DNA of 64,000 nt from Candidatus Poribacteria bacterium (GTDB taxonomy: Bacteria > Poribacteria > WGA-4E > PCPOR2b): positions 3,296,001-3,360,000 of the forward strand of contig OZ244042.1 in the NCBI GenBank assembly GCA_965215015.1, written 5' to 3'. How positions within the stretch are numbered: position 1 is the first letter of the stretch; every line of letters starts with the position of its first letter. The translations under genes and the position numbers were made by a program. Below are positions 2,572 through 53,773 of the stretch, one piece after another. Below the pieces are notes generated by a model. It was not told the DNA's origin. It did no database searches and worked only from the letters and a program-made list of their open reading frames with translations.

Positions 2572-3801
2572 ATGAAAATTAAGCATGTTGAAACAATGAC
2601 TGTGGATATTCCCTTTTACTGTGACCACGTAACTCGCGCCATGCAGCGGGCTCAGACCCACGATGAGCGCGTTCATCTGTGTCGCATCGAGACTGACAAC
2701 GGCATCGTTGGGTATGGCGATAGCGGCGTTTCGGATGCGGACCGGCTGATTGGTCAGAATCCTTTCGTCATCATGAACGACGACTCTATCGGTTTTGGCG
2801 CACAGTTGGCTGTGCTGGATATAGCAGGAAAAGCCGCTGGCGCGCCAGTGCACGCCCTGCTAGGTGACAAAGTGCGCGATCGCTGTCCCATCTCTTGGTG
2901 GGATATCGACATGCCGCCGGAGGATTGGGCTGCAGAGGCAAAGGAATCCCTCAAACGCGGCTACACAACCTTCAAGATGAAAGCCCGTCCTTGGCGCGAC
3001 ATCATTGAGCAGATAGAGACGGTCGGAAAGGTTGTGCCACTCGATTACAAGTTCGATGTGGACTTCAACGGTTTCCTGCTGACTCAGGCAAAAGCTGAGA
3101 TTATCCTCCAGCAGCTTGATCCTCACCCCAATATTGGTATGTATGAGAGTCCCTTCTATCTCCAGCAAGATCTGACAGGTGCCCGCATCCTCCGGGAACG
3201 GGTGTGCAAGCCTATCGTTGAGCACTTCCGCGAGGAGTGTCTGCATTCCCATTGCAGTGACGGCTTTGTAATCGGTGGCGGTGTCACGCAAGTTCGGCGC
3301 GATGCCACGCTCGCTGCCGCCTTCAACAAACCTTTCTGGCTGCAATTGGTCGGCACCGGTATCACTACCGCCTTCGCCGTACATCTCGGTTCAGTTCTCT
3401 CACACGCCCAACTGCCCTACATCACCTGTTTTGAATTGTGGGAACACAATCTCCTCAAAGAAGGACTTGAGGTGGTAGATGGATACATTGACGTGCCAGA
3501 CGCGCCGGGGTTGGGGATCGAGGTTGATGAGAAGGCTATTAAGAAGTACCGGGTTGAGCCTAGTACGCCAACACCGACAGCGTTGTATCGTCAGAAGAAG
3601 CGTATTCTCCGCATCAGTTGGCCCGGCGTTGGAAAGAAACAGCGGGTTTGGGAATTCACTGACGAATCCATTTATCAGCAGGCTTTCTATCAAGGCAACC
3701 TTCCCGGCTTTGAACGCGGCGTGAATCTGGAGGTCATTGAGGACGACAATAGTTCTGGTTTTCGGAAACAACATGAAAAACTGGGAGCTCGAGGGCTGTG
3801 A
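2572..3801 (+). CDS. Mandelate racemase/muconate lactonizing (enolase superfamily) enzyme
   Basis: KMK, VDFN and ESP motifs, C-terminal PDAPGLGIEVD; RBS aggag. Confidence 0.88.
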   Translation: MKIKHVETMTVDIPFYCDHVTRAMQRAQTHDERVHLCRIETDNGIVGYGDSGVSDADRLIGQNPFVIMNDDSIGFGAQLAVLDIAGKAAGAPVHALLGDKVRDRCPISWWDIDMPPEDWAAEAKESLKRGYTTFKMKARPWRDIIEQIETVGKVVPLDYKFDVDFNGFLLTQAKAEIILQQLDPHPNIGMYESPFYLQQDLTGARILRERVCKPIVEHFREECLHSHCSDGFVIGGGVTQVRRDATLAAAFNKPFWLQLVGTGITTAFAVHLGSVLSHAQLPYITCFELWEHNLLKEGLEVVDGYIDVPDAPGLGIEVDEKAIKKYRVEPSTPTPTALYRQKKRILRISWPGVGKKQRVWEFTDESIYQQAFYQGNLPGFERGVNLEVIEDDNSSGFRKQHEKLGARGL

Positions 3802-4197
3802 TTGCCCGAATCGTATCTAACTGAAGCTCATTGGTTCATTAATGAATCAATGAATGATAAGGTAGAACCTCTATTGTGCTTGATAGGGATTTGCATCTAC
3901 CCGCTCAACCTAACCTACTAAAGCTCCAGCAGGGTGAATATAGCAATGCCAAATCACCACAACCCAAAAGGCAAGCAGATCGGCGCAGCAAGGTTGATTT
4001 CTATGATTCTTTTTGACCCATTGGTACGATACAGGAGTTCACAAGTTCTATCTTGTAAATCCTTGAATCCTGAGCCTCCTAACTCAGGCAAATGTTCAGT
4101 CGTTCAATGAACCATGTGGAAACGATAGCCTCACCAACTCGCACCAAAGGTTATTAAATTTCTAAGAAGATTCTTACTTAAGGAAAGGAGTATTGTC

Positions 4198-6510
4198 ATG
4201 TCAGAATATGCAGTCCTTGGCAAAAGACTACCCAGAGTCGATGCCCTTGAAAAAGTAACAGGTGCAGCGCAATACGGAGCTGATGTTCACCTGCCCGGTA
4301 TGCTCCACGGTAAATTTGTTCGTAGCAAACACCCACATGCAAAAATTGTTAGCATCGACACCAGCGAAGCTGAAAAACTTCCCGGTGTTCGGGCTATCAT
4401 CACCCAAGACGATGTTGAGAGCGGACGACGGGTCTTTGCTTCTGACAAAGTCCTGTATCTCGGTGAACCGATTGCAGCCGTTGCGGCAACAGACCCGGAC
4501 ATCGCAGAGGAAGCTGCCGACCTAATTCAGGTCAACTATGAAGTGTTACCCGTTGTTCAAGACGTAACCGAGGCGATCAAGCCGGACGCGCCACGCCTGC
4601 ACAGCGATGATACCAAAGATGGCCCCACCCGTAGAGCGATTAGAACCAACTTGAGAAGACTTGAGCGGGACGAATCGCAAGACTATAGCGCAGAGATTGC
4701 GGAGTTAAACGCACAGTTGGCAGGGATAAAAGATGAAGTCTACTACAACATCTCCGCTGAAACCCACACAGCGGTTGGTGATGTCGAGGAAGGCTTCGCC
4801 GAATCAGACCTTGTCGTGGAAGATACCTATGTCATTCCACGGGTTCATCAGACCTACATGGAGCCGCACGTTTCTGTCGCTGATGTCGATTCCACCGGGA
4901 AAGTAACGGTGTGGGCAAGCACACAAGGTCCCTTCGCCATCCGATCCGGCATCGCCGGCACGCTCGGCATTCCGCTCAATCAGGTCAACGTGATTGCGAC
5001 AACGATGGGCGGCGGATTTGGCGGCCGTTTCGGCGTCGCCTTGACGCATGTGCCTGCGGTTCTCCTCTCTCAGAAGACGGGACGTCCGGTAAAGATTCAG
5101 ATGACCCGCGAAGAGGAGTTTACCGATGGCCGTCCTGCACCGGGGTGCGTGATCACACTAAAAACGGGTGTAAAAAATGACGGCACAATCGTCGCCCGTC
5201 AAGCCCTTGCCTTTTGGGATTCCGGTTCCGTATCGGGTGCCTCGATTGGTAGCACCCTCCGCGTACGGGGTGTCTATAAGATTCCGCACCTAAAGGTTGA
5301 CGCATATGGCGTCTACACAAACAAGTCTGGCACCGCTGCCTATCGCGCCCCGGGTACACCCCAAGCTGCCTTCGCCGGTGAATCCCAACTCGATGACATT
5401 GCACGCAAACTTGGTATGGACCCGGTTGAGTTTCGTCTCAAAAACATGCGTGAAGAGGGCGATTCCATCCCCGGCGGCGGTCAGCGTGGTGGATCCAGAG
5501 AACCGAAGGTCGGTTATAAAGAAACCCTGCAAGCGGTTGCCGATGCTGTTGGTTGGCAGAGCCGAACCAAAGGACCAAATCAAGGGTGGGGTGTGGCGAT
5601 TGGTGATTGGACAAATGGTTGTGGACCGGGTGGGATGTTCGTCTCTATCCACGAAGATGGGAGCGCGCGAATCTTCCACGGTTCTATGGACATCAGCGGC
5701 ACCGATACCGCAATTACCCAGATTGTTGCCGAGGTGCTGACCCTCCCCTACGAGCAGGTTGCAATCACCCGTGGCGATACCGATTCCGCACCTTATGCCA
5801 CCGGTTCTGGCGGTAGCGTTGTTACCTTCACGATGGGGAACACCGCCAAGATTGCGGCTGAAGACACGCGCAAACGTATTCTGGAACTCGCCTCTGAACG
5901 GTTGAATACGGAGATCGATAACCTCACACTGGATGGAGGAAGGGTGACCACAGTTGTCGGTGATCCGCCGAAATCGATTGGATTCGGTGAGTTGGCTGCA
6001 TACAGCCTTTCAACAACAGGCGGTCCCATCGTTGGCAAAGGTTCGTTTGCACGGCAACCGACGACGCCAGCCCTTGCCGCACAAATCGCTAAGGTCGAGG
6101 TCGATTCGGAGACCGGCAGAATCAAGGTGCTGAAGATGGCATCTTCTCAGGATGTCGGCTTTGCTATCAACCCGATGGCAGTGGAGGGACAGATTGAAGG
6201 CGGTACAGTACAAGGCTACGCTTGGGCGACCATGGAGGAGATGCAGTATGACGAGAACGGTAGCGTGAATCCAGGCTTTGTCGATTATCGTGTGCCGACC
6301 TCCGCAGACCTACCAACCGTTGAATCCGTTATCGTTGAAGTGGAAGCTCTCAACGGGCCGTTCGGCGCGAAAGGTGTCGGCGAACCTCCCATCACGCCTA
6401 CCTTGGCAACGATGGCGAATGCTGTTGCTGATGCAGTTGATGTCCGAATTACCGAGCTCCCGATGACACCAGAGCGGGTTGTTGATGCGATTGGTAACAC
6501 ATCCGTTTAG
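4198..6510 (+). CDS. Xanthine dehydrogenase family molybdopterin-binding subunit
   Basis: RVDALEKVTG, MEPH, GGGFGG, AYRAPG, GQIEGG and KGVGE motifs. Confidence 0.92.
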   Translation: MSEYAVLGKRLPRVDALEKVTGAAQYGADVHLPGMLHGKFVRSKHPHAKIVSIDTSEAEKLPGVRAIITQDDVESGRRVFASDKVLYLGEPIAAVAATDPDIAEEAADLIQVNYEVLPVVQDVTEAIKPDAPRLHSDDTKDGPTRRAIRTNLRRLERDESQDYSAEIAELNAQLAGIKDEVYYNISAETHTAVGDVEEGFAESDLVVEDTYVIPRVHQTYMEPHVSVADVDSTGKVTVWASTQGPFAIRSGIAGTLGIPLNQVNVIATTMGGGFGGRFGVALTHVPAVLLSQKTGRPVKIQMTREEEFTDGRPAPGCVITLKTGVKNDGTIVARQALAFWDSGSVSGASIGSTLRVRGVYKIPHLKVDAYGVYTNKSGTAAYRAPGTPQAAFAGESQLDDIARKLGMDPVEFRLKNMREEGDSIPGGGQRGGSREPKVGYKETLQAVADAVGWQSRTKGPNQGWGVAIGDWTNGCGPGGMFVSIHEDGSARIFHGSMDISGTDTAITQIVAEVLTLPYEQVAITRGDTDSAPYATGSGGSVVTFTMGNTAKIAAEDTRKRILELASERLNTEIDNLTLDGGRVTTVVGDPPKSIGFGELAAYSLSTTGGPIVGKGSFARQPTTPALAAQIAKVEVDSETGRIKVLKMASSQDVGFAINPMAVEGQIEGGTVQGYAWATMEEMQYDENGSVNPGFVDYRVPTSADLPTVESVIVEVEALNGPFGAKGVGEPPITPTLATMANAVADAVDVRITELPMTPERVVDAIGNTSV

Positions 6511-6520
6511 GGTTGAATAG

Positions 6521-6550
6521 AGTAGGGAACACAAATCTGCGTTCCCTACT
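6521..6550. repeat. GTAG-type REP-like palindrome (relatives at 15528-15555 and 50904-50931)
   Basis: agtagggaac-N10-gttccctact is a perfect 10-bp stem. Confidence 0.75.
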
Positions 6551-6572
6551 ACCTTGATAGGTTGGGAAAACT

Positions 6573-7868
6573 ATGACCGCCACAGAACTTGCTGAATGGG
6601 TGATTGACGCCCGGCAGCGTACCTTTGATATTGTTGCAGATCTCACCGATGAACAGATAATGAGCCCGTACCTCTCGATCGTCAACCCATTGCTGTGGGA
6701 GATTGGGCACGTCGCGTGGTTTCAAGAGAAATGGGTACTGCGAGATACATGCAAGGCGAAACCGATTCGTGATGACGCTGACGCCCTTTGGGATTCGATT
6801 GCAATCCCCCATGAAACACGGTGGGATCTGCCGTTACCTTCCCGCGAAGGAACGTTAGCGTATATGCGAGAAGTACGGGACCAGATTTTGGACAGGCTTC
6901 AGCGCGAGGAACCGAGTGAGGAACTGGCGTATTTTGTGCGCTATACCACCTACCATGAAGACATGCACAATGAGGCGTTCACATATACACGCCAGACTTT
7001 GGAATACCCACCACCACGCTTTTCTGCTGTTCCTGAAGGCCATCGCGATATCGGAGGCGGCCCATTGTCGGGTAATGCCGAAATCCCCGGCGGCACGTTG
7101 ATGTTGGGTGCTGCGCCTGACGAACCCTTTGTGTTTGACAATGAGAAGTGGGCGCATCCGGTCAAAATTGAGCCGTTCGCCATTGCGCGTGCCGCTGTGA
7201 CTCAATCCGAGTTTGCCGCGTTTACCGAGGATAACGGCTATCATCGGAAGGAATTGTGGGCGGCGGAGGGATGGGAGTGGCGGGAGTCCGTAAACGCAGC
7301 GCATCCCGTCTACTGGCAAGCTGCAGATAACGGTTGGATGCGTCGGCACTTTGACAAATGGGTGCCGCTTGAGCCCCACCTTCCGATCATCCATGTCAAC
7401 TACTATGAAGCCGAGGCCTACTGCCGTTGGGCAGATCGCCGCCTTCCAACGGAAGCCGAATGGGAGACAGCCGCCTCTGTCGAGCCGAACCCAACAGGAG
7501 ACGGATTCTCTTCACGGAAACGTCGTTTCCCTTGGGGCGATGAACCCCCAATGCCAGAATACGCCAACCTTGACTGGGGTGCGATGGGTTGCATTGACGT
7601 AGGAGCATGTCCAGAAAGCGATAGTGCCTTCGGCTGCCGGCAGATGATCGGTAACGTCTGGGAGTGGACCAGTACCCCCTTTCGTCCCTATCCGGGCTTT
7701 GAAATTGACCCCTACAAAGAGTATTCGGAACCGTGGTTTGAAACCCGTAAAGTATTGCGCGGGGGCTGCTGGACAACCCGTTCGCGTCTCCTCCGAAATA
7801 CATGGCGTAACTTCTATACACCAGATCGGCAGGATGTGTTAGCGGGCTTTAGGACATGCACAATCTAA
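6573..7868 (+). CDS. senA: EgtB-family non-heme iron enzyme, SenA (selenoneine synthase)-like subtype
   Basis: DinB-like domain plus FGE-sulfatase domain. NPLLWEIGHVAWFQEKW, HETRWDLPLP, HEDMHNE iron motif, PYKEYSEPWF, RNFY. Confidence 0.7.
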   Translation: MTATELAEWVIDARQRTFDIVADLTDEQIMSPYLSIVNPLLWEIGHVAWFQEKWVLRDTCKAKPIRDDADALWDSIAIPHETRWDLPLPSREGTLAYMREVRDQILDRLQREEPSEELAYFVRYTTYHEDMHNEAFTYTRQTLEYPPPRFSAVPEGHRDIGGGPLSGNAEIPGGTLMLGAAPDEPFVFDNEKWAHPVKIEPFAIARAAVTQSEFAAFTEDNGYHRKELWAAEGWEWRESVNAAHPVYWQAADNGWMRRHFDKWVPLEPHLPIIHVNYYEAEAYCRWADRRLPTEAEWETAASVEPNPTGDGFSSRKRRFPWGDEPPMPEYANLDWGAMGCIDVGACPESDSAFGCRQMIGNVWEWTSTPFRPYPGFEIDPYKEYSEPWFETRKVLRGGCWTTRSRLLRNTWRNFYTPDRQDVLAGFRTCTI

Positions 7869-7889
7869 ATTAGCAACCGAACTTGATGA

Positions 7890-8960
7890 ATGCTGAGCCA
7901 TGGGCGAAATTCACGTACGGCTCAGTCCTCATTACTTCCACCCAATGACGGATTAATAATGGAACAAGGCCTACCGGATGACCTCAACCTGATTAAGGCA
8001 CTTCAACAAGACTCGCAGCAATCCCTAAAAGATGCGGTTGCAGAAGGATTGAAAAGAACTCAGAAAAGTATTCCTGCTCTCTACTTTTACGATATCGCCG
8101 GTTCGCAGCTTTTCGAGCAGATCTGCAAACTCCCTGAATACTATCCAACGCGAACTGAGCAAAAAATATTGACAAACAATGCGCGGGCCATCATCGGAAC
8201 AGTCCCCGGCCAAGTGGAACTGGTAGAGCTTGGGAGTGGCAGTTCTTTCAAAACACGGGTTCTAATTGACGCAGTTCTCGCCAATCAAACCTACCTCCAC
8301 TACATACCGACCGACATTTCCACAGACTTTCTACTCGAATCGGCGATTGCCCTCAAAAACGACTACGAACCGTTATCGATCACGGCGATCGCCGCCGAGC
8401 ACAAGGATGCGCTCCGGCTATTACCCGGTGGAGGTAGCCAATCTCGCCTTTTTCTTTTTTTGGGCAGCAACATCGGTAATTTTGAGCCGGAAGAAACAAT
8501 TGACTTCATTGGACAGATTCGCCGCCGAATGCGTGAGGAGGACCGCTTGCTGATGGGCTTTGATCTGGTGAAAGAGCATCAGGTGCTTTTCGACGCTTAC
8601 AACGACAAGGCAGGGGTAACGGCTGCGTTCAACAAAAACCTGCTGGTCCGGATTAACCGCGAATTGGGCGGAGACTTCGATTTCGACCTGTTCGACCATT
8701 ACGCGCCATTTGTCGAGAAGCATTCTCGCATTGAAATGCACCTGATAAGTCGGTGTGATCAACTGGTTTATGTGGCAGGGCTTGAGGAAGTGTTCAATTT
8801 TGAGGCCGGTGAATACATCCATACGGAAAACAGCTACAAGTACACACTTGAGGGCTTGGGTTCCCTTTGTGAAACGGCGGGGATGAAGATGGAGGAATAT
8901 TGGCTGGATAAACGTGGGTGGTTTGCGGTGGGACTGTTTCGCAGAGCCGGGAGAGGATAG
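7890..8960 (+). CDS. egtD: L-histidine N-alpha-trimethyltransferase (hercynine synthase); start may be 7959
   Basis: YFYDIAGSQLFEQICKLPEYYPTRTE, ELGSGSS, FLGSNIGNF, AYNDKAGVTAAFN, IHTENSYKY. Confidence 0.93.
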   Translation: MLSHGRNSRTAQSSLLPPNDGLIMEQGLPDDLNLIKALQQDSQQSLKDAVAEGLKRTQKSIPALYFYDIAGSQLFEQICKLPEYYPTRTEQKILTNNARAIIGTVPGQVELVELGSGSSFKTRVLIDAVLANQTYLHYIPTDISTDFLLESAIALKNDYEPLSITAIAAEHKDALRLLPGGGSQSRLFLFLGSNIGNFEPEETIDFIGQIRRRMREEDRLLMGFDLVKEHQVLFDAYNDKAGVTAAFNKNLLVRINRELGGDFDFDLFDHYAPFVEKHSRIEMHLISRCDQLVYVAGLEEVFNFEAGEYIHTENSYKYTLEGLGSLCETAGMKMEEYWLDKRGWFAVGLFRRAGRG

Positions 8961-8964
8961 GCGT

Positions 8965-9714
8965 ATGAACGAAAGTAAAATCGCGCTACGGAATGTCGAG
9001 ATGCGTTTTGGCGACGTTGTCGCACTCCATTCGACCAACCTGCAGGTCACAAAGGGGCAAACGACGGTGCTAATCGGTCCGAGCGGTTGTGGTAAGTCCA
9101 CGATTCTGCGGCTAATCATTGGTTTGTTAACGCCAACATCTGGCGCAGTCGAATTTGAAGGGAAACCGGTTTCAAAGAATAATATCCTTGCGTTACGGCG
9201 TCGGATGGGTTACGTCATTCAGGATGGTGGCCTGTTTCCGCATCTGACTGCTGCACAAAATGTAACCCTCATGGCAAAGCATCTCCAAATCTTTCAAGAG
9301 GACGAAATCCAAGCAAAACTGGACGAACTCTGTGAGCTGACTCACTTCCCAAAAGAGGGCCTCGATCGTTATGCAGTCGAACTCTCCGGTGGGCAGCGTC
9401 AGCGTGTCAGTCTGATGCGGGCACTTGCTTTAGATCCTGACGTTCTGCTGCTTGATGAGCCACTTGGGGCGTTAGATCCGATGGTTCGTGCTTCTCTACA
9501 AACAGAGTTGAAAGAAATTTTCAGCCGCCTTGGCAAAACTGTCATCCTTGTCACCCACGACATGGCAGAAGCGGGCTATATTGGAGACAGCATTGTTCTT
9601 ATGCGAGAAGGTCGGATTGTCCAACAGGGAACGCTTGATGACCTCCGAGAGCAACCGGCTGACGGTTTCGTCTCGGAATTCATCACCGCGCAACGGAGTT
9701 TAGTTCAGTTGTGA
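8965..9714 (+). CDS. ABC ATPase, OpuBA/OsmV (betaine/ergothioneine) type
   Basis: Walker A GPSGCGKS, MGYVIQDGGLFPH, LSGGQRQR, LLLDEP; 4 bp after egtD. Confidence 0.9.
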   Translation: MNESKIALRNVEMRFGDVVALHSTNLQVTKGQTTVLIGPSGCGKSTILRLIIGLLTPTSGAVEFEGKPVSKNNILALRRRMGYVIQDGGLFPHLTAAQNVTLMAKHLQIFQEDEIQAKLDELCELTHFPKEGLDRYAVELSGGQRQRVSLMRALALDPDVLLLDEPLGALDPMVRASLQTELKEIFSRLGKTVILVTHDMAEAGYIGDSIVLMREGRIVQQGTLDDLREQPADGFVSEFITAQRSLVQL

Positions 9715-9736
9715 GAGAGGGGCATTTAGTTCTCCA

Positions 9737-9768
9737 GTAGGAGGGATTTCCGAATCCCGACTTCCTAC
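9737..9768. repeat. GTAG-type REP-like element (inverted relative at 32417-32440)
   Basis: gtaggagggatttccgaatcccgacttcctac. Confidence 0.65.
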
Positions 9769-9814
9769 TTAGATAGCAAGAAAACTGAAAACTAAATAGC
9801 CCTAGAGACGTGCG

Positions 9815-11416
9815 ATGAATCGCATGACTACAAACAAAGAGAGGACAGGGATCCTGACCCAAAGGATGAACAAACAACAAGAAGCAAACAGCACGCAGCA
9901 ACATATCTCACGTTTCATGTTTTATATACTATCTGCCCTTCTGTTGATCTGCACATTGTCTTCCGCCAATGCCCAAGAAATCAGTGTTGGTTCCAAGCGG
10001 TTTACGGAGTCCTATGTCCTCGGTGAAATAGCAAAGAAATTGCTGGAAGATACGGGCTACCGTGTGAAATTTAAGCAGGGGATGGGCGGCACCATTATCG
10101 TGTGGGAGGCATTGAAGAATGGTGATATCGCCATGTATCCCGACTACACCGGCACCATCCAAGAGACGATTCTGAAATCGGCGACCCCAATGACATCCGA
10201 GCAGATGCGGAGTGCGCTCGCCGAACATGGCCTCGGCATGACAGGTGAGTTAGGCTTCAACAACACCTACGCGTTTGCCATGCGCCGAGCACATAGCGAT
10301 TCTCTGAACATACATAAAATTTCAGACCTACAGGACCACTCAAATCTCAAGGTAGGATTTACCCATGAGTTTCTGGAACGCGCGGACGGTTGGACACCGT
10401 TGAGCCAGCGTTACGGATTGCAGATTAGACCTCGCGGGATGGAACACGCCCTAGCGTATGTCGCTCTGAACAGCGGTGAGATTGATCTCATGGATGCCTA
10501 CTCCACCGATGCAAAACTCGCTGAATATGACCTAACCGTGTTGGAAGATAATCTGCATTTCTTCCCCAAGTACAACGCTGTCTTTCTTTACCGGTTGGAC
10601 ACCGATCCGGCAGCTATCAACGCAATCCATAAATTGGAAGGCACCATTGATGAAGCACTAATGACGCGATTGAATGCCGAAGCCGAACGCACAAACAACT
10701 TTGCAGCCGCCGCGTCGCTCTACTTTAGCGAAGTACAAAACAGAGCGATAGAAGTCGTGTCCCAGTCGTTTATGTCTAAACTAGTGCGATGGACAGCACG
10801 ACATCTGATGCTCGTAGGCATTTCGATGGCAATTGCTATTGTGGTTAGCATCCCGCTTGGCATACGCGCTAGCCGTCCCGGAATATTCAGCCAAATCATC
10901 ATTGGGATACCAGGGATCATGCAAACCGTGCCATCGCTGGCACTGCTCGCGATACTTGTGCCGGTGCCGATGCTCGGAACAAGTCCGACAACAGCGATTG
11001 TTGCGCTTTTTCTCTACAGCCTTTTGCCGATTGTTCGGAACACCGCCACCGGGCTTCAGAACATTCCGACACCGTTGAGGGAATCTGCTGCCGCACTTGG
11101 GCTTGAATCCGCTGCCCAATTGACGAAGGTGTACCTACCGATGGCATCACGGACAATCCTTGCAGGTATCAAGACAAGTGCTATCATCAACGTTGGAACG
11201 GCTACGCTCGCTGCGCTCATCGGAGCGGGCGGACTTGGCGAACCGATTATCAGCGGTCTCGCTCTCAACAACGCCGAGGTTATCCTGCAAGGTGCTATCC
11301 CGGCGGCACTGCTGGCGATTTTGGTTCAGATATGCTTTGACTGTCTAGACCGAATGATTATTCCGAGAGGGCTGCGTCTGGAGGAGGCCTCCCAACAAGC
11401 TGCGGCAGGCGAGTGA
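9815..11416 (+). CDS. Fused substrate-binding protein (OpuAC/OsmF type) and permease of a betaine/ergothioneine-type ABC importer; start may be 9866 or 9917
   Basis: Signal peptide, GSKRFTESYVLGE, YPDYTGT, NNTYA, YSTD; C-terminal TM domain with QTVPSLALL, ESAAALG, LIGAGGLG. Confidence 0.9.
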   Translation: MNRMTTNKERTGILTQRMNKQQEANSTQQHISRFMFYILSALLLICTLSSANAQEISVGSKRFTESYVLGEIAKKLLEDTGYRVKFKQGMGGTIIVWEALKNGDIAMYPDYTGTIQETILKSATPMTSEQMRSALAEHGLGMTGELGFNNTYAFAMRRAHSDSLNIHKISDLQDHSNLKVGFTHEFLERADGWTPLSQRYGLQIRPRGMEHALAYVALNSGEIDLMDAYSTDAKLAEYDLTVLEDNLHFFPKYNAVFLYRLDTDPAAINAIHKLEGTIDEALMTRLNAEAERTNNFAAAASLYFSEVQNRAIEVVSQSFMSKLVRWTARHLMLVGISMAIAIVVSIPLGIRASRPGIFSQIIIGIPGIMQTVPSLALLAILVPVPMLGTSPTTAIVALFLYSLLPIVRNTATGLQNIPTPLRESAAALGLESAAQLTKVYLPMASRTILAGIKTSAIINVGTATLAALIGAGGLGEPIISGLALNNAEVILQGAIPAALLAILVQICFDCLDRMIIPRGLRLEEASQQAAAGE

Positions 11417-11523
11417 TTCTATACACATGTCGTCCTGCTGGGATGTAGTGATTCGGTCTTGCTATACACCTTGTGCTCCTCTGGAGCAAACGTTATTGCA
11501 GATAGAAAAAATTGGAGGAGAAA

Positions 11524-12042
11524 ATGGATTGGGAAATCAAGAAGAGAGGGCGTGTGACCTACTACCGTAAGAAGACCAACGATGTTTTTTCAGATCTGGT
11601 CGTCGAAACGCTCGATAGCGGCGACCTCAAAATTCGCTTCGTTGGCATGACAGGCGCACTGGCAGCGACCAACGAATTGGAATTGGACGAGGTAGCGCGC
11701 ATGGATCCAGAAAAGGAGATACCGCGTATCTTCGACACTTGGGAAATGTATGTGCGTGAAGCGGGGATTTGTGATTCTCTGGCGGAGCTCGATTTTTTGG
11801 AGGTCCATTCCTTTGGCGCGGCCCCCAAAGAACCACATCCGTTAGTTGAGCCGGAGGGTTACGCGGTGGAAAAGGAGCGTATCCGCCAAGCTTATGCACA
11901 GGCCTATGCGGCTTACTGGAAGGAGAAGATGCCGGAAAACGGGCTGCCGGTGCGGTTCACGGTCTATCTAGAGGAACTACCGGATACGGCTGCCAGCTAC
12001 GAATTCGGGGCTGTGGCACTCTATCAAAGATCAGCGAAGTAG
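11524..12042 (+). CDS. Hypothetical protein, possibly a divergent RidA/YjgF-like fold
   Basis: Strong RBS ggagg. C-terminus RFTVYLEELP...YEFGAVA resembles the RidA C-terminal pattern; fold is a guess. Confidence 0.6.
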   Translation: MDWEIKKRGRVTYYRKKTNDVFSDLVVETLDSGDLKIRFVGMTGALAATNELELDEVARMDPEKEIPRIFDTWEMYVREAGICDSLAELDFLEVHSFGAAPKEPHPLVEPEGYAVEKERIRQAYAQAYAAYWKEKMPENGLPVRFTVYLEELPDTAASYEFGAVALYQRSAK

Positions 12043-12087
12043 GCAGTGCGGATCTGTTCTCTTGAAGCAACATCTAGGAAGATTATC

Positions 12088-12972
12088 TCAAAACCGTTTT
12101 TGTAATACCAACTGGCTCTGAACGTTATAGGGAGAAACACGCGTTTGCAGCTGCAACTCAAAGGGCTTATGTTTTTTATTGAAGCTTTTCGCAGCGATGC
12201 GAGCGTCGACTGCACTGATAACGTGATTCAGAATAGCAATCCCCAGAAAAGTCTTCGCTAACTGGAATTTGTCATTGGCATCCATCCGCATTTGAAAGGC
12301 AGCTTCACGTAGTGGAGAATCATGTTTCTTCCGTTCTTCATCTTTGTAGGTCACTCGATCCGCCCAATACCATTTGCCGACCCTTTCAAGTGGTTCACCA
12401 TTGCCATCCATCATATAGATATTACGCCAATTGTCAAACTGGGTTGCGTGCTCATAATCTTCGATAGGGTCCCAGTTGTCGAACTTGGTGGGACCTTCAG
12501 GAATAACGTGGTCTCTCACATGCTCGCGATAGTCCTCCCGGAGGTTTTGTGCATCGCTGCGTATGATGAAATAGGCAATAAGAAGTCCTGCCTCCGCTGC
12601 AATCTGAAGGTAGCCTCGCTTCGCACCGATGTAGAGTTGCCCCGACCCCGGAACAAGTGCCGAGTACAGAAATGCTTTTGTTGGAGATTTTGTCGGTTCC
12701 AGATTCAGCGGTGCTTGAAGTCCTTCGATAACCGGAGTTTCGCTTTGCTCGGTTGGTAATGTTTGTGTACCTAGCGCAGAGATGAACCGAAAAGATGTAT
12801 CCTGAAAATTCTCAGATGCTTTTTCCGATAGAGGTAAAATTTTGGAGTTTTGCTCCACGTCGAACCCTTTCGACGCACTCCCTACCTGTGCAAAAGTCCC
12901 AATACCAAGCAGCACCACGAGCAGAATCCAGCCCCAATACAATTGGGACTCAAAGCAACGTGTATGTTTCAT
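12088..12972 (-). CDS. Hypothetical membrane/secreted protein (DUF5683-like motif)
   Basis: N-terminal hydrophobic segment, KSPTKAFLYSALVPGSGQLY, SAVDA; C-terminal Phe. Confidence 0.65.
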   Translation of the reverse strand: MKHTRCFESQLYWGWILLVVLLGIGTFAQVGSASKGFDVEQNSKILPLSEKASENFQDTSFRFISALGTQTLPTEQSETPVIEGLQAPLNLEPTKSPTKAFLYSALVPGSGQLYIGAKRGYLQIAAEAGLLIAYFIIRSDAQNLREDYREHVRDHVIPEGPTKFDNWDPIEDYEHATQFDNWRNIYMMDGNGEPLERVGKWYWADRVTYKDEERKKHDSPLREAAFQMRMDANDKFQLAKTFLGIAILNHVISAVDARIAAKSFNKKHKPFELQLQTRVSPYNVQSQLVLQKRF

Positions 12973-53389: not shown

Positions 53390-53773
53390 ATGCACATACT
53401 AAAGCTCACACTAATCTGTTGCATAGCGATGCTGCTTGCTGTTGGCTGTGCTTCAGAGAAGAAGATAGAACAAGCGACTGAGACAACACAACCCGCAACC
53501 ACAGAAGCAGATACCACTGCAAGCACGGATATGTCCGCAGCAGCACCGGCGGCTCATGAGCAAATCACGTTAAACGTTAATGGGCTGACGTGAGGTGGTT
53601 GTGTAGCCAAAGTGCGGTCTGCACTTACGAGCGTTCCCGGTGTGATTAGTGCCGATGTTCTTCAAACAGATGGTAAAGCCATCGTCAAGCTGGAGAAAGG
53701 CAAAGCCACCGCTGTCCAATTGACCGATGCTGTCGAAAAAGCGGGTTTCAGCGCAGAAACCGCAACAAATTAG
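53390..53773 (+). CDS. Probable selenoprotein: lipoprotein with heavy-metal-associated (HMA, CopZ/MerP-like) domain, UxxC motif
   Basis: Lipobox LAVG-C. Reading through TGA 53591-93 gives LNVNGLT-U-GGCVAKVRSALTSVPGVISADV...LTDAVEKAGF, 127 aa, ending at TAG 53771-73. Confidence 0.88.
53610..53626 (+). promoter_or_regulatory. Bacterial SECIS element
   Basis: aagtgc-ggtct-gcactt hairpin, loop 22 nt after UGA; resembles the E. coli fdhF apical stem GCAGGUCUGC. Confidence 0.8.

Follow-up and report, generated by a model that had tools for sequence, protein, structure and literature searches.

A predicted selenoneine synthase gene joined to egtD and an ABC importer in a Poribacteria genome, with its donor genes at a second locus

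We analyzed a stretch of 64,000 nucleotides from a Candidatus Poribacteria bacterium (assembly GCA_965215015.1, contig OZ244042.1; C1:3296001-3360000 in chromosomal coordinates), which is referred to below as the window. Positions 6573-11416 of the window hold four open reading frames (ORFs), all on the plus strand and, by the ORF list and profile scans, in the order senA, egtD, ABC transporter ATPase and binding-domain/permease fusion. We consider it likely that this locus covers hercynine formation and the coupling step, one half of an ordinary selenoneine pathway, and that a dedicated ABC importer accompanies it. In this scheme, EgtD would trimethylate histidine to hercynine, SelD/SenC would supply selenophosphate for SenB to make the selenosugar, and SenA would join hercynine and selenosugar through a C2-Se bond to give selenoneine, the donor half coming from a MetE-like-selD-senB operon 216 kb downstream. 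As a type I ABC importer of the AfProX/EgtU subfamily, the ATPase and the fusion would take in a histidine betaine, either hercynine to feed the synthase or leaked selenoneine or ergothioneine to be recaptured. The predicted chemistry is known; the novelty lies in the move of senA to an egtD-importer module and in a conserved importer with a pocket signature of its own. Selenoneine, a selenium metabolite and antioxidant, has only recently been explained.

The genes of the locus and the two domains of the fusion are as follows, in window positions.

6573..7868, + strand: senA, predicted non-haem-iron selenoxide synthase (selenoneine synthase), 431 amino acids, DinB_2 plus FGE-sulfatase
7890..8960, + strand: egtD, predicted L-histidine N-alpha-methyltransferase (hercynine maker), 356 amino acids, TIGR03438 and Methyltransf_33
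8965..9714, + strand: ABC transporter ATP-binding subunit, 249 amino acids, ABC_tran, without CBS domains
9815..11416, + strand: fusion of an N-terminal signal/anchor, a periplasmic OpuAC-type substrate-binding domain (SBD) and a type I importer permease, 533 amino acids
9977..10705, + strand: SBD with a betaine-type aromatic cage, residues 55-297 of the fusion, Pfam OpuAC
10850..11368, + strand: permease domain, residues 346-518 of the fusion, BPD_transp_1, E 2.8e-20

The spacings are 21 nt between senA and egtD, 4 nt between egtD and the ATPase gene (with the ATG at 8965 as its start) and 100 nt between the ATPase gene and the fusion, in agreement with a preliminary description of this DNA that spoke of four co-oriented genes with the first three close together.

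The synthase and its methyltransferase partner

Gene families were called by NCBIfam and Pfam profiles with curated cut-offs. The first protein scored 516.6 bits against the SenA profile NF041186 (cut-off 420, E 5e-155) and 339.4 bits against the EgtB profile TIGR03440, under the cut-off of 360; Pfam placed DinB_2 at residues 13-130 and FGE-sulfatase at residues 170-428. In a MAFFT alignment of 104 homologues, the active-site positions of the window protein were occupied by N38, E43 and H46, by H80 and R83, by H128, M131 and H132, by Y381 and Y384, by N413, F414 and Y415, and by R419. These residues agree with the composite rule for SenA, xNEH--HRHxHYYN(F/Y)(F/Y)R, in the available part of the ovoselenol preprint (PMC11030361), which also gives rules for EgtB-I (xSDH--RRHQHYYNWDR), EgtB-II (xSHHYYRRHQHxYNFFx) and OvsA (...HYMQAYR). 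The window enzyme has N/E where the EgtB rules have S/D or S/H, and in place of the M/Q/A triad of OvsA it carries Y384/N413/F414, the hercynine-type YNF triad. Furthermore, Arg87 and Asp416, which bind the thiol in EgtB, are reported to be His and Phe/Tyr in all SenA (10.1101/2022.04.13.486033, in the part available), and His80 and Tyr415 stand at these positions here.

Among solved structures, the protein matched the OvsA-YNF variant 8ux5 with 338.1 bits, wild-type OvsA 8u41 with 328.5, Variovorax paradoxus SenA 8k5i with 265 and Mycolicibacterium thermoresistibile EgtB 4x8b with 263; OvsA-M401Y/Q430N/A431F is reported to behave as SenA (PMC11030361). We assign the window enzyme as a predicted SenA that is close in sequence to the branch that gave rise to OvsA and has kept the hercynine-type triad. 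The preliminary description had already preferred a SenA-type enzyme to an EgtB using cysteine or gamma-Glu-Cys, and the profile cut-offs and the composite motif bear this out; the strings that it quoted are present as NPLLWEIGHVAWFQE (residues 38-52), HETRWDLPLP (80-89) and RNFY (412-415).

SenA is the sole full-length enzyme of its family found by a profile search of the whole genome. The same model gave 20 further matches, scattered on the chromosome, which cover the FGE-sulfatase half only and belong to a large paralogous family. Among the related loci fetched from other genomes, four (L069, L070, L078 and L085) encode SenA-like proteins whose composite motif diverges (E E H Y R ... N F F/Y R), and none of the four loci contains senB; these are possibly an unclassified synthase type.

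The second protein scored 365.8 bits against the EgtD profile TIGR03438 (cut-off 290.9, E 2e-109), with residues 47-349 covering profile positions 3-300 of 301, and matched Pfam Methyltransf_33 with E 1.5e-107; the true start of the gene may lie downstream of 7890. A tblastn search found egtD as a single copy in the genome. From these matches, EgtD is predicted to be a bona fide histidine N-alpha-methyltransferase.

The donor genes and their in-frame UGA codons

Whole-genome profile searches returned one copy of selD (369 bits, cut-off 125) and one of senB (401.6 bits, over the TIGR04348 cut-off of 300, in a reading frame that TGA interrupts once, at codon 145). The two genes stand side by side at C1:3518746-3520758, on the same chromosome as senA (C1:3302573) and 216 kb downstream of it; no SenB or SelD match was found inside the window. 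The earlier statement that senB and senC are missing thus holds for the window and fails for the genome. To account for their absence, the preliminary description had offered either dispersed genes or a variant pathway with a different donor. Dispersal is what we found, and the pair co-occurs with senA in 44-45 of the 176 genomes of the phylum; a different donor is unneeded here, as senB and selD are both encoded.

The phylum survey, whose 176 genomes include that of the window (G000), found SenA over its cut-off in 45 genomes, SenB over its cut-off in 44 (45 at E <= 1e-40) and the fusion protein in 46 at E <= 1e-60. SenA, SenB and the transporter occurred in the same genomes and in the same 10 of 31 genera; in the one extra transporter genome, G017, the transporter is paired with an EgtB-type enzyme (346 bits). 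In each of the 19 other genomes of the window's genus, one contig carried both senA and the transporter, 1.8-6.9 kb apart, and senA and senB were far apart wherever they shared a contig. Other arrangements join the two halves: G034 has egtD-ATPase-SBD/permease-(MetE-like)-senA-selD-senB on a single strand, G064 and G066 have egtD-ATPase-SBD/permease convergent with senA-selD-senB, and in G032 a stretch of 13 kb, in which no selD match was found, holds senA, senB, egtD and the transporter.

The 80 SenA loci closest to the window enzyme, taken from one-genome-per-species contigs, had senB in 70 cases (69 within 500 nt of senA), selD in 18, an EgtD match in 12 (10 of them strong) and a transporter in 5 (L015, L018, L020, L023 and L025), all of which also have egtD. 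An orphan senA is thus unusual among its relatives. With the donor genes present in the genome, and clustered with senA in other genera, the predicted pathway would be complete but divided over two loci, and no other selenium donor is called for. The simplest reading is that one sen cluster was split in this genus.

Two rival accounts of the synthase have to be weighed against SenA fed by SenB. It is very unlikely that SenA belongs to a variant selenoneine/ergothioneine pathway and uses a donor other than the SenB selenosugar. Such a variant would fit the distance between senA and senB in this genome, and it draws some support from L018 and L025, loci of the metagenome-assembled genomes (MAGs) G002 and G003 with the same cassette, where no SenB passed the cut-off (best 95-97 bits) even though selD with a TGA was present, and where a MetE-like gene with a stop at the selenocysteine (Sec) position stands between egtD and senA. 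These MAGs are, however, fragmented into at least 248 and at least 343 contigs, and senB and selD are present here, co-occur with senA across the phylum and stand beside it in sister genera. Extremely unlikely is an enzyme that is not SenA at all but an ergothioneine-making EgtB with a sulfur donor, or an OvsA-type histidine 5-selenylase. The EgtB model does still give 339 bits, OvsA is the best solved relative by sequence, and SenA itself is reported to accept thioglucose, if poorly (10.1101/2022.04.13.486033). Against both identities stand the EgtB score below its cut-off, the replacement of the thiol-binding Arg/Asp pair by His80 and Tyr415, a YNF triad at the OvsA signature positions, where these changes are reported to turn OvsA into SenA, and a next gene, egtD, that is the hercynine maker.

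In full, the cassette of L018 and L025 reads egtD-MetE-like (stop at the Sec position)-senA-ATPase-SBD/permease, and the best match to the SenB model in these MAGs is a GPMC-type glycosyltransferase; they are either incomplete MAGs or a real senB-less variant.

At the second locus of the window genome, C1:3517291-3520758, the MetE-like gene, selD and senB are consecutive, and each has one TGA when TGA is read as U. The senB gene and the copies of the MetE-like gene are located as follows.

C1:3517291-3518211 (L004:13-936): MetE-like gene of G000, upstream of selD, PRK06520 subfamily, 176 bits, below cut-off
C1:3519811-3520758 (L004:2533-3483): senB, TGA at codon 145, FEL-U-VLGHLRPVKD
L018:9012-9932, L025:1659-2579, L193:9438-10358 and L082:5370-6296: MetE-like genes in other loci, from distant lineages

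The TGA of selD lies in the usual N-terminal ...CGUAAK loop. That of senB lies nine residues before the lysine aligned with K158, the catalytic lysine of SenB named in PMC10891094 (available part). Among 69 SenB homologues from SenA loci, the codon-145 position is Cys in 34, Ser in 11, Ala in 7, Val in 7, Leu in 6, Thr in 3 and Ile in 1; with such variability, a catalytic role is not obvious. One TGA is carried by 10 of the 45 SenB genes of the phylum survey, and these 10 belong to six genera. Besides G000, all six readable copies with a TGA (L104, L181, L183, L184, L186 and L190) have it at the same codon, and eight close relatives without TGA use a Cys codon there, TGC or TGT. It is very unlikely that nonsense mutations arose twice independently at the same codon, and so we read the position as a Cys/Sec pair and the protein as a likely selenocysteine form of SenB. 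A contig from another study (X5), with 48 differences over 2143 bases, spans codon 145, and none of the differences among the 40 rows listed falls there, which is weak evidence. A hairpin, UG.GUCC[CGUGAA]GGAC.CA, starts 14 nt past the senB UGA in 7 of 7 genes, with six pairs and, in one sequence, a change from G-C to G-U; it overlaps conserved codons and hence is not independent proof of Sec. Rfam gave no match to a selenocysteine insertion sequence (SECIS) family on the selD-senB locus, the two matches obtained being at chance level. The genes for SelA, SelB and tRNA-Sec are clustered at C1:4763111-4766646.

In the MetE-like gene, the TGA lies in an H-L-U motif, which we take to be the site of the zinc-binding His-x-Cys of MetE. 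The gene was found in 23 of the 176 genomes, all of them sen-positive, with one TGA in 22 and two in G054. In L018 and L025 it is flanked by egtD and senA, in G034 by the permease gene and senA, and all three copies have a stop where Sec would be; a Thiohalorhabdus MAG (L082) has it beside selD-senB with Cys at that position. It may serve to regenerate methionine for EgtD, or in Se-methylation. If UGA is decoded in this way in senB and the MetE-like gene, the pathway that uses up selenophosphate would itself include additional selenoproteins. In the main text of a 2026 review of the prokaryotic selenoproteome (PMC13188914), the terms SenB, glycosyltransferase and selenosugar do not occur.

The selenoprotein that the preliminary description placed at 53390 in the window was recovered as a lipoprotein-like ORF, 53390-53773 on the plus strand, with one TGA in the HMA metal-binding motif GLTUGGC (PF00403, 43.7 bits).

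The egtD-linked importer and its substrate

We scanned metagenome contigs from the transporter, seeding the search with two motif patterns of its clade, and obtained 80 loci (46-67% identity), of which 54 were informative. The egtD gene was present in 50 of the 54; in 49 it stood directly upstream, on the same strand and less than 400 nt before the ATPase gene, and in L176 it lay downstream of the transporter instead. It was not found in L101, L173, L177 and L178 despite at least 1 kb of upstream DNA. A non-haem-iron sulfoxide/selenoxide synthase (NHISS) preceded egtD in 33 of the 50 loci, 16 had no room for one, and 1 had room but none. At the 14 columns compared, the 24 full-length NHISS from egtD loci have S H H H R H Q H L Y N F F K/A, which agrees with 11 of the 12 positions fixed in the EgtB-II rule; the odd position may be an alignment shift beside the type II insertion; the synthase of L113, for example, scored 571 bits for EgtB versus 341 for SenA. 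Most of the metagenomic modules follow a type II EgtB, and a minority adjoin SenA. Thus egtD-ATPase-permease is a conserved three-gene module beside type II EgtB or SenA. The coupling of an ABC importer to the pathway, proposed in the preliminary description, gains support from these neighborhoods, from the co-occurrence with sen genes in the phylum and from the importer's place on the AfProX/EgtU branch of OpuAC-type importers.

In L104, a locus with the SenA motif, senA, selD and senB are convergent with the ATPase gene and the fusion, and egtD is unmatched since the contig ends; directly upstream of senA-selD-senB, at L104:5684-8864, lies a putative selenate ABC system with a TIGR04553 binding protein and PhnC- and PhnE-like subunits. 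The egtD-less relative in L177 (4983-6921 and 11596-13173) stands behind selD and a serine O-acetyltransferase gene and near a PRK06370-type FAD oxidoreductase, a family also tabulated beside NHISS genes in a published frequency table. In a quick tree of the transporters, from which the L023 row was disregarded (wrong frame, branch length 6.6), 22 of 23 EgtB-II-linked rows fell into one group of 59 rows (Shimodaira-Hasegawa-like approximate likelihood ratio test, SH-aLRT, 94, unstarred) and the SenA-linked rows outside it, a grouping that is tentative.

Our literature search found no paper that characterizes the egtD-linked transporter. The only mention was in the same frequency table, where, in the part available, OpuBB/PBP2_AfProX_like permeases adjoin 5.4% of NHISS genes and whose source classes transporters with housekeeping genes. 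Likewise, a bacterial transporter for selenoneine or hercynine is named in none of the searchable papers.

The N-terminus of the fusion is hydrophobic by inspection and ends in ...SSANA/QE; Pfam then finds OpuAC at residues 55-297 (E 9e-51) and BPD_transp_1 at 346-518 (E 3e-20, rounded). The choline and ProW models gave the permease 81 and 63 bits, both under cut-off. Against the PDB, the SBD scored 147.6 bits with Listeria BilEB/Lmo1422, 139.9 with Archaeoglobus fulgidus ProX (AfProX), 133-137 with Streptococcus pneumoniae EgtUC (SpEgtUC) and 115.5 with Helicobacter pylori EgtU, compared with about 88 for OpuBC/OpuCC. The ATPase matched ABC_tran (E 1e-37) and positions 4-234 of 363 of the ProV model; a longer ORF with a GTG start at 8914 would overlap egtD, and the orthologue in L015 is the 249-residue ORF. 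C-terminal tandem CBS domains are typical of the OpuAA/ProV ATPases of osmoregulated betaine importers, and Pfam found no CBS match in the 249-residue ATPase, which sets it apart from the OpuA/ProU type.

Pocket residues were mapped from PMC9732360 and a 2025 preprint, as far as these are available, via the PDB-match alignment, with SpEgtUC numbering taken as chain index + 229 and checked on K242, F293, Y341, E375, R379, D381, Y419 and Y443. The mapped residues of the window protein are K61, R62, F63, G91, G92, T93, Y111, T114, F148, N150, Y152, E185, R189, D191, Y229 and Y253. Kept with EgtU are the cage Y111/Y152/Y229/Y253, Asn150, the carboxylate clamp K61/T114/R189, E185 and D191, and the SBD has the aromatic cage, the K242/R379 clamp and the E375 that characterize EgtUV. 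It does not have the ergothioneine determinants that PMC9732360 reports for EgtU, the invariant G244 and the Y-to-F switch F293 with Y337: Phe63, Tyr111 and Phe148 stand there, all of them AfProX states, and the same states occur in 85/85, 85/85 and 84/85 clade loci. The preliminary description had counted ergothioneine among the possible ligands, and an EgtU-like specificity for it cannot be inferred from a pocket that lacks these determinants. Arg62 takes the position that contacts sulfur in EgtU (I243, with Pro in H. pylori and in AfProX). Among the 85 loci, the commonest residue at this position is Lys (73), followed by Arg (5), His (2), Ser (2), Ala (1) and Asn (1), and one locus is unaligned. 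From this pattern, the SBD appears to be built for a carboxylate betaine and to be neither a canonical EgtU nor quite an AfProX.

Genomic context moderately favors histidine betaine as the substrate, because the pathway passes through hercynine in both its sulfur and its selenium version. Each hercynine costs three molecules of S-adenosylmethionine. Hercynine has also been described as possibly indicating that ergothioneine is oxidized in cells (2025 preprint, available part). More tentatively, the egtD-linked importer may represent an uncharacterized class for hercynine, selenoneine or ergothioneine, with recognition by a basic residue (Arg62, mostly Lys) where EgtU uses CH-S contacts and a role in salvage or recapture in producer operons; the same tentative proposal includes selenoproteins, a Sec-containing SenB and the MetE-like protein, that are not listed in the main text of the 2026 review.

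The principal alternative for the transporter is a general compatible-solute importer for glycine or proline betaine, not specific to histidine betaines, whose link to egtD would be regulatory or metabolic, through a common stress regulon or the economy of methyl groups, for instance. We regard it as unlikely, though well worth weighing. The AfProX score is as high as the EgtUC score, and the three discriminating pocket positions are AfProX-like almost throughout the clade. Such an importer would not explain why egtD is found in 50 of 54 informative relatives, or why, within the phylum, the transporter is limited to sen-positive genomes and one with an EgtB-type cassette. The ATPase moreover is without CBS osmosensing domains, the clade's Asn150-Thr-Tyr and GFTxEF..R.DG resemble EgtU and not AfProX, and the sulfur-contact position has a clade-specific Lys/Arg where AfProX has Pro.

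Several points weigh against the reading as a dedicated importer attached to a selenoneine pathway. Phe63, Tyr111 and Phe148 are, by alignment, the states of the glycine betaine protein AfProX and not those of high-affinity EgtU. The SBD is also the sole OpuAC-type domain that tblastn found in the genome at E <= 1e-5 and could serve the general betaine importer of the cell. Of the 80 metagenomic loci, 26 are uninformative, the contig ending within or just before the ATPase gene, and seeding with clade motifs biases which relatives were found, though not their neighbors. The phylum genomes are kin, so that their counts overstate independence and describe a lineage (10 of 31 genera). Finally, an intact senB requires that its UGA be decoded as selenocysteine.

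The findings have three implications. In soil and sponge-associated bacteria, egtD and a specific ABC importer stay together as a fixed unit, whether the partner enzyme is of the sulfur or the selenium kind. The question of hercynine and selenoneine uptake would acquire a concrete protein, with a pocket unlike that of the known ergothioneine transporter. For genome mining, an orphan senA need not mean new chemistry, because the distance to the donor genes can range from hundreds of kilobases to megabases.

The surroundings of the locus can be described more briefly. A gene for the large subunit of a xanthine-dehydrogenase-family molybdopterin hydroxylase (4198-6510, plus strand) ends 62 nt before senA; among the fetched loci tested for it, it adjoins senA only in the close relative L015. 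This Candidatus Poribacteria MAG is the closest named record, with a SenA 91% identical and the gene order of the window from the molybdenum enzyme through a small ORF after the permease. A promoter and terminator scan of 3800-12300 gave 8 promoter-like and 6 terminator-like sites, compared with 6.8 and 8.5 in shuffles; as these counts are not above those in shuffles, operon boundaries cannot be drawn from the scan.

Comparison with known systems

A close pathway precedent is senABC of V. paradoxus (10.1101/2022.04.13.486033, available part), with which the present system shares the SenA, SenB and SelD/SenC families, all over NCBIfam cut-offs. EgtD supplies hercynine in both, and egtD is reported to be co-localized in a subset of the published clusters. 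Unlike in V. paradoxus, senA here is 216 kb from selD-senB and joined to egtD and an ABC importer, both selD and senB have an in-frame UGA, and the window SenA is closer to OvsA (338 bits) than to the V. paradoxus enzyme (265 bits). The OvsA/ovoselenol pathway of Halomonas and Marinobacter contains the closest solved relative of the synthase, and it has the same SenB/SenC selenosugar supply; the ovs genes, too, are reported to lie apart on the chromosome in some strains. It differs in the M/Q/A triad of OvsA, where the window enzyme has Y/N/F, and in the partner enzyme, which is OvsM and not EgtD.

On the transport side, the importer resembles EgtUV (S. pneumoniae, H. pylori and L. monocytogenes BilE) in its OpuAC fold and four-aromatic cage, in belonging to the same substrate-binding protein subcluster, in the Lys/Arg clamp K61/R189, in Glu185 at the place of E375, in the Asn150-Thr-Tyr152 linker, in the fusion of SBD and permease and in its short ATPase. 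In contrast to EgtUV, the SBD is N-terminal and the permease C-terminal, the SpEgtU SBD being reported as residues 233-506 (PMC9732360); Phe, Tyr and Phe stand at G244, F293 and Y337; the sulfur-contact residues I243/P296 are replaced by Arg here and by Lys in 73 of 85 clade members; and the importer occurs in producers beside egtD, whereas EgtUV occurs in non-producers. AfProX, which binds glycine and proline betaine, shares the four-tyrosine cage, Phe at the F15 and F107 positions and equivalents of K13, R149 and T66, with a phmmer score of 140 bits. It is set apart by Pro14, where the importer has a basic residue, by a D109-D110 linker in place of the N-T found here and in EgtU, and by the absence of the permease fusion and of the histidine-betaine biosynthesis context seen here. 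Also close are the type II EgtB-EgtD operons, such as that with Chloracidobacterium thermophilum EgtB; in the egtD-bearing metagenomic loci, the same egtD-ATPase-SBD/permease module follows EgtB-II in 24 of 24 aligned cases. Here, unlike in those loci, the synthase before egtD is a predicted SenA, and the predicted product is the selenium analogue.

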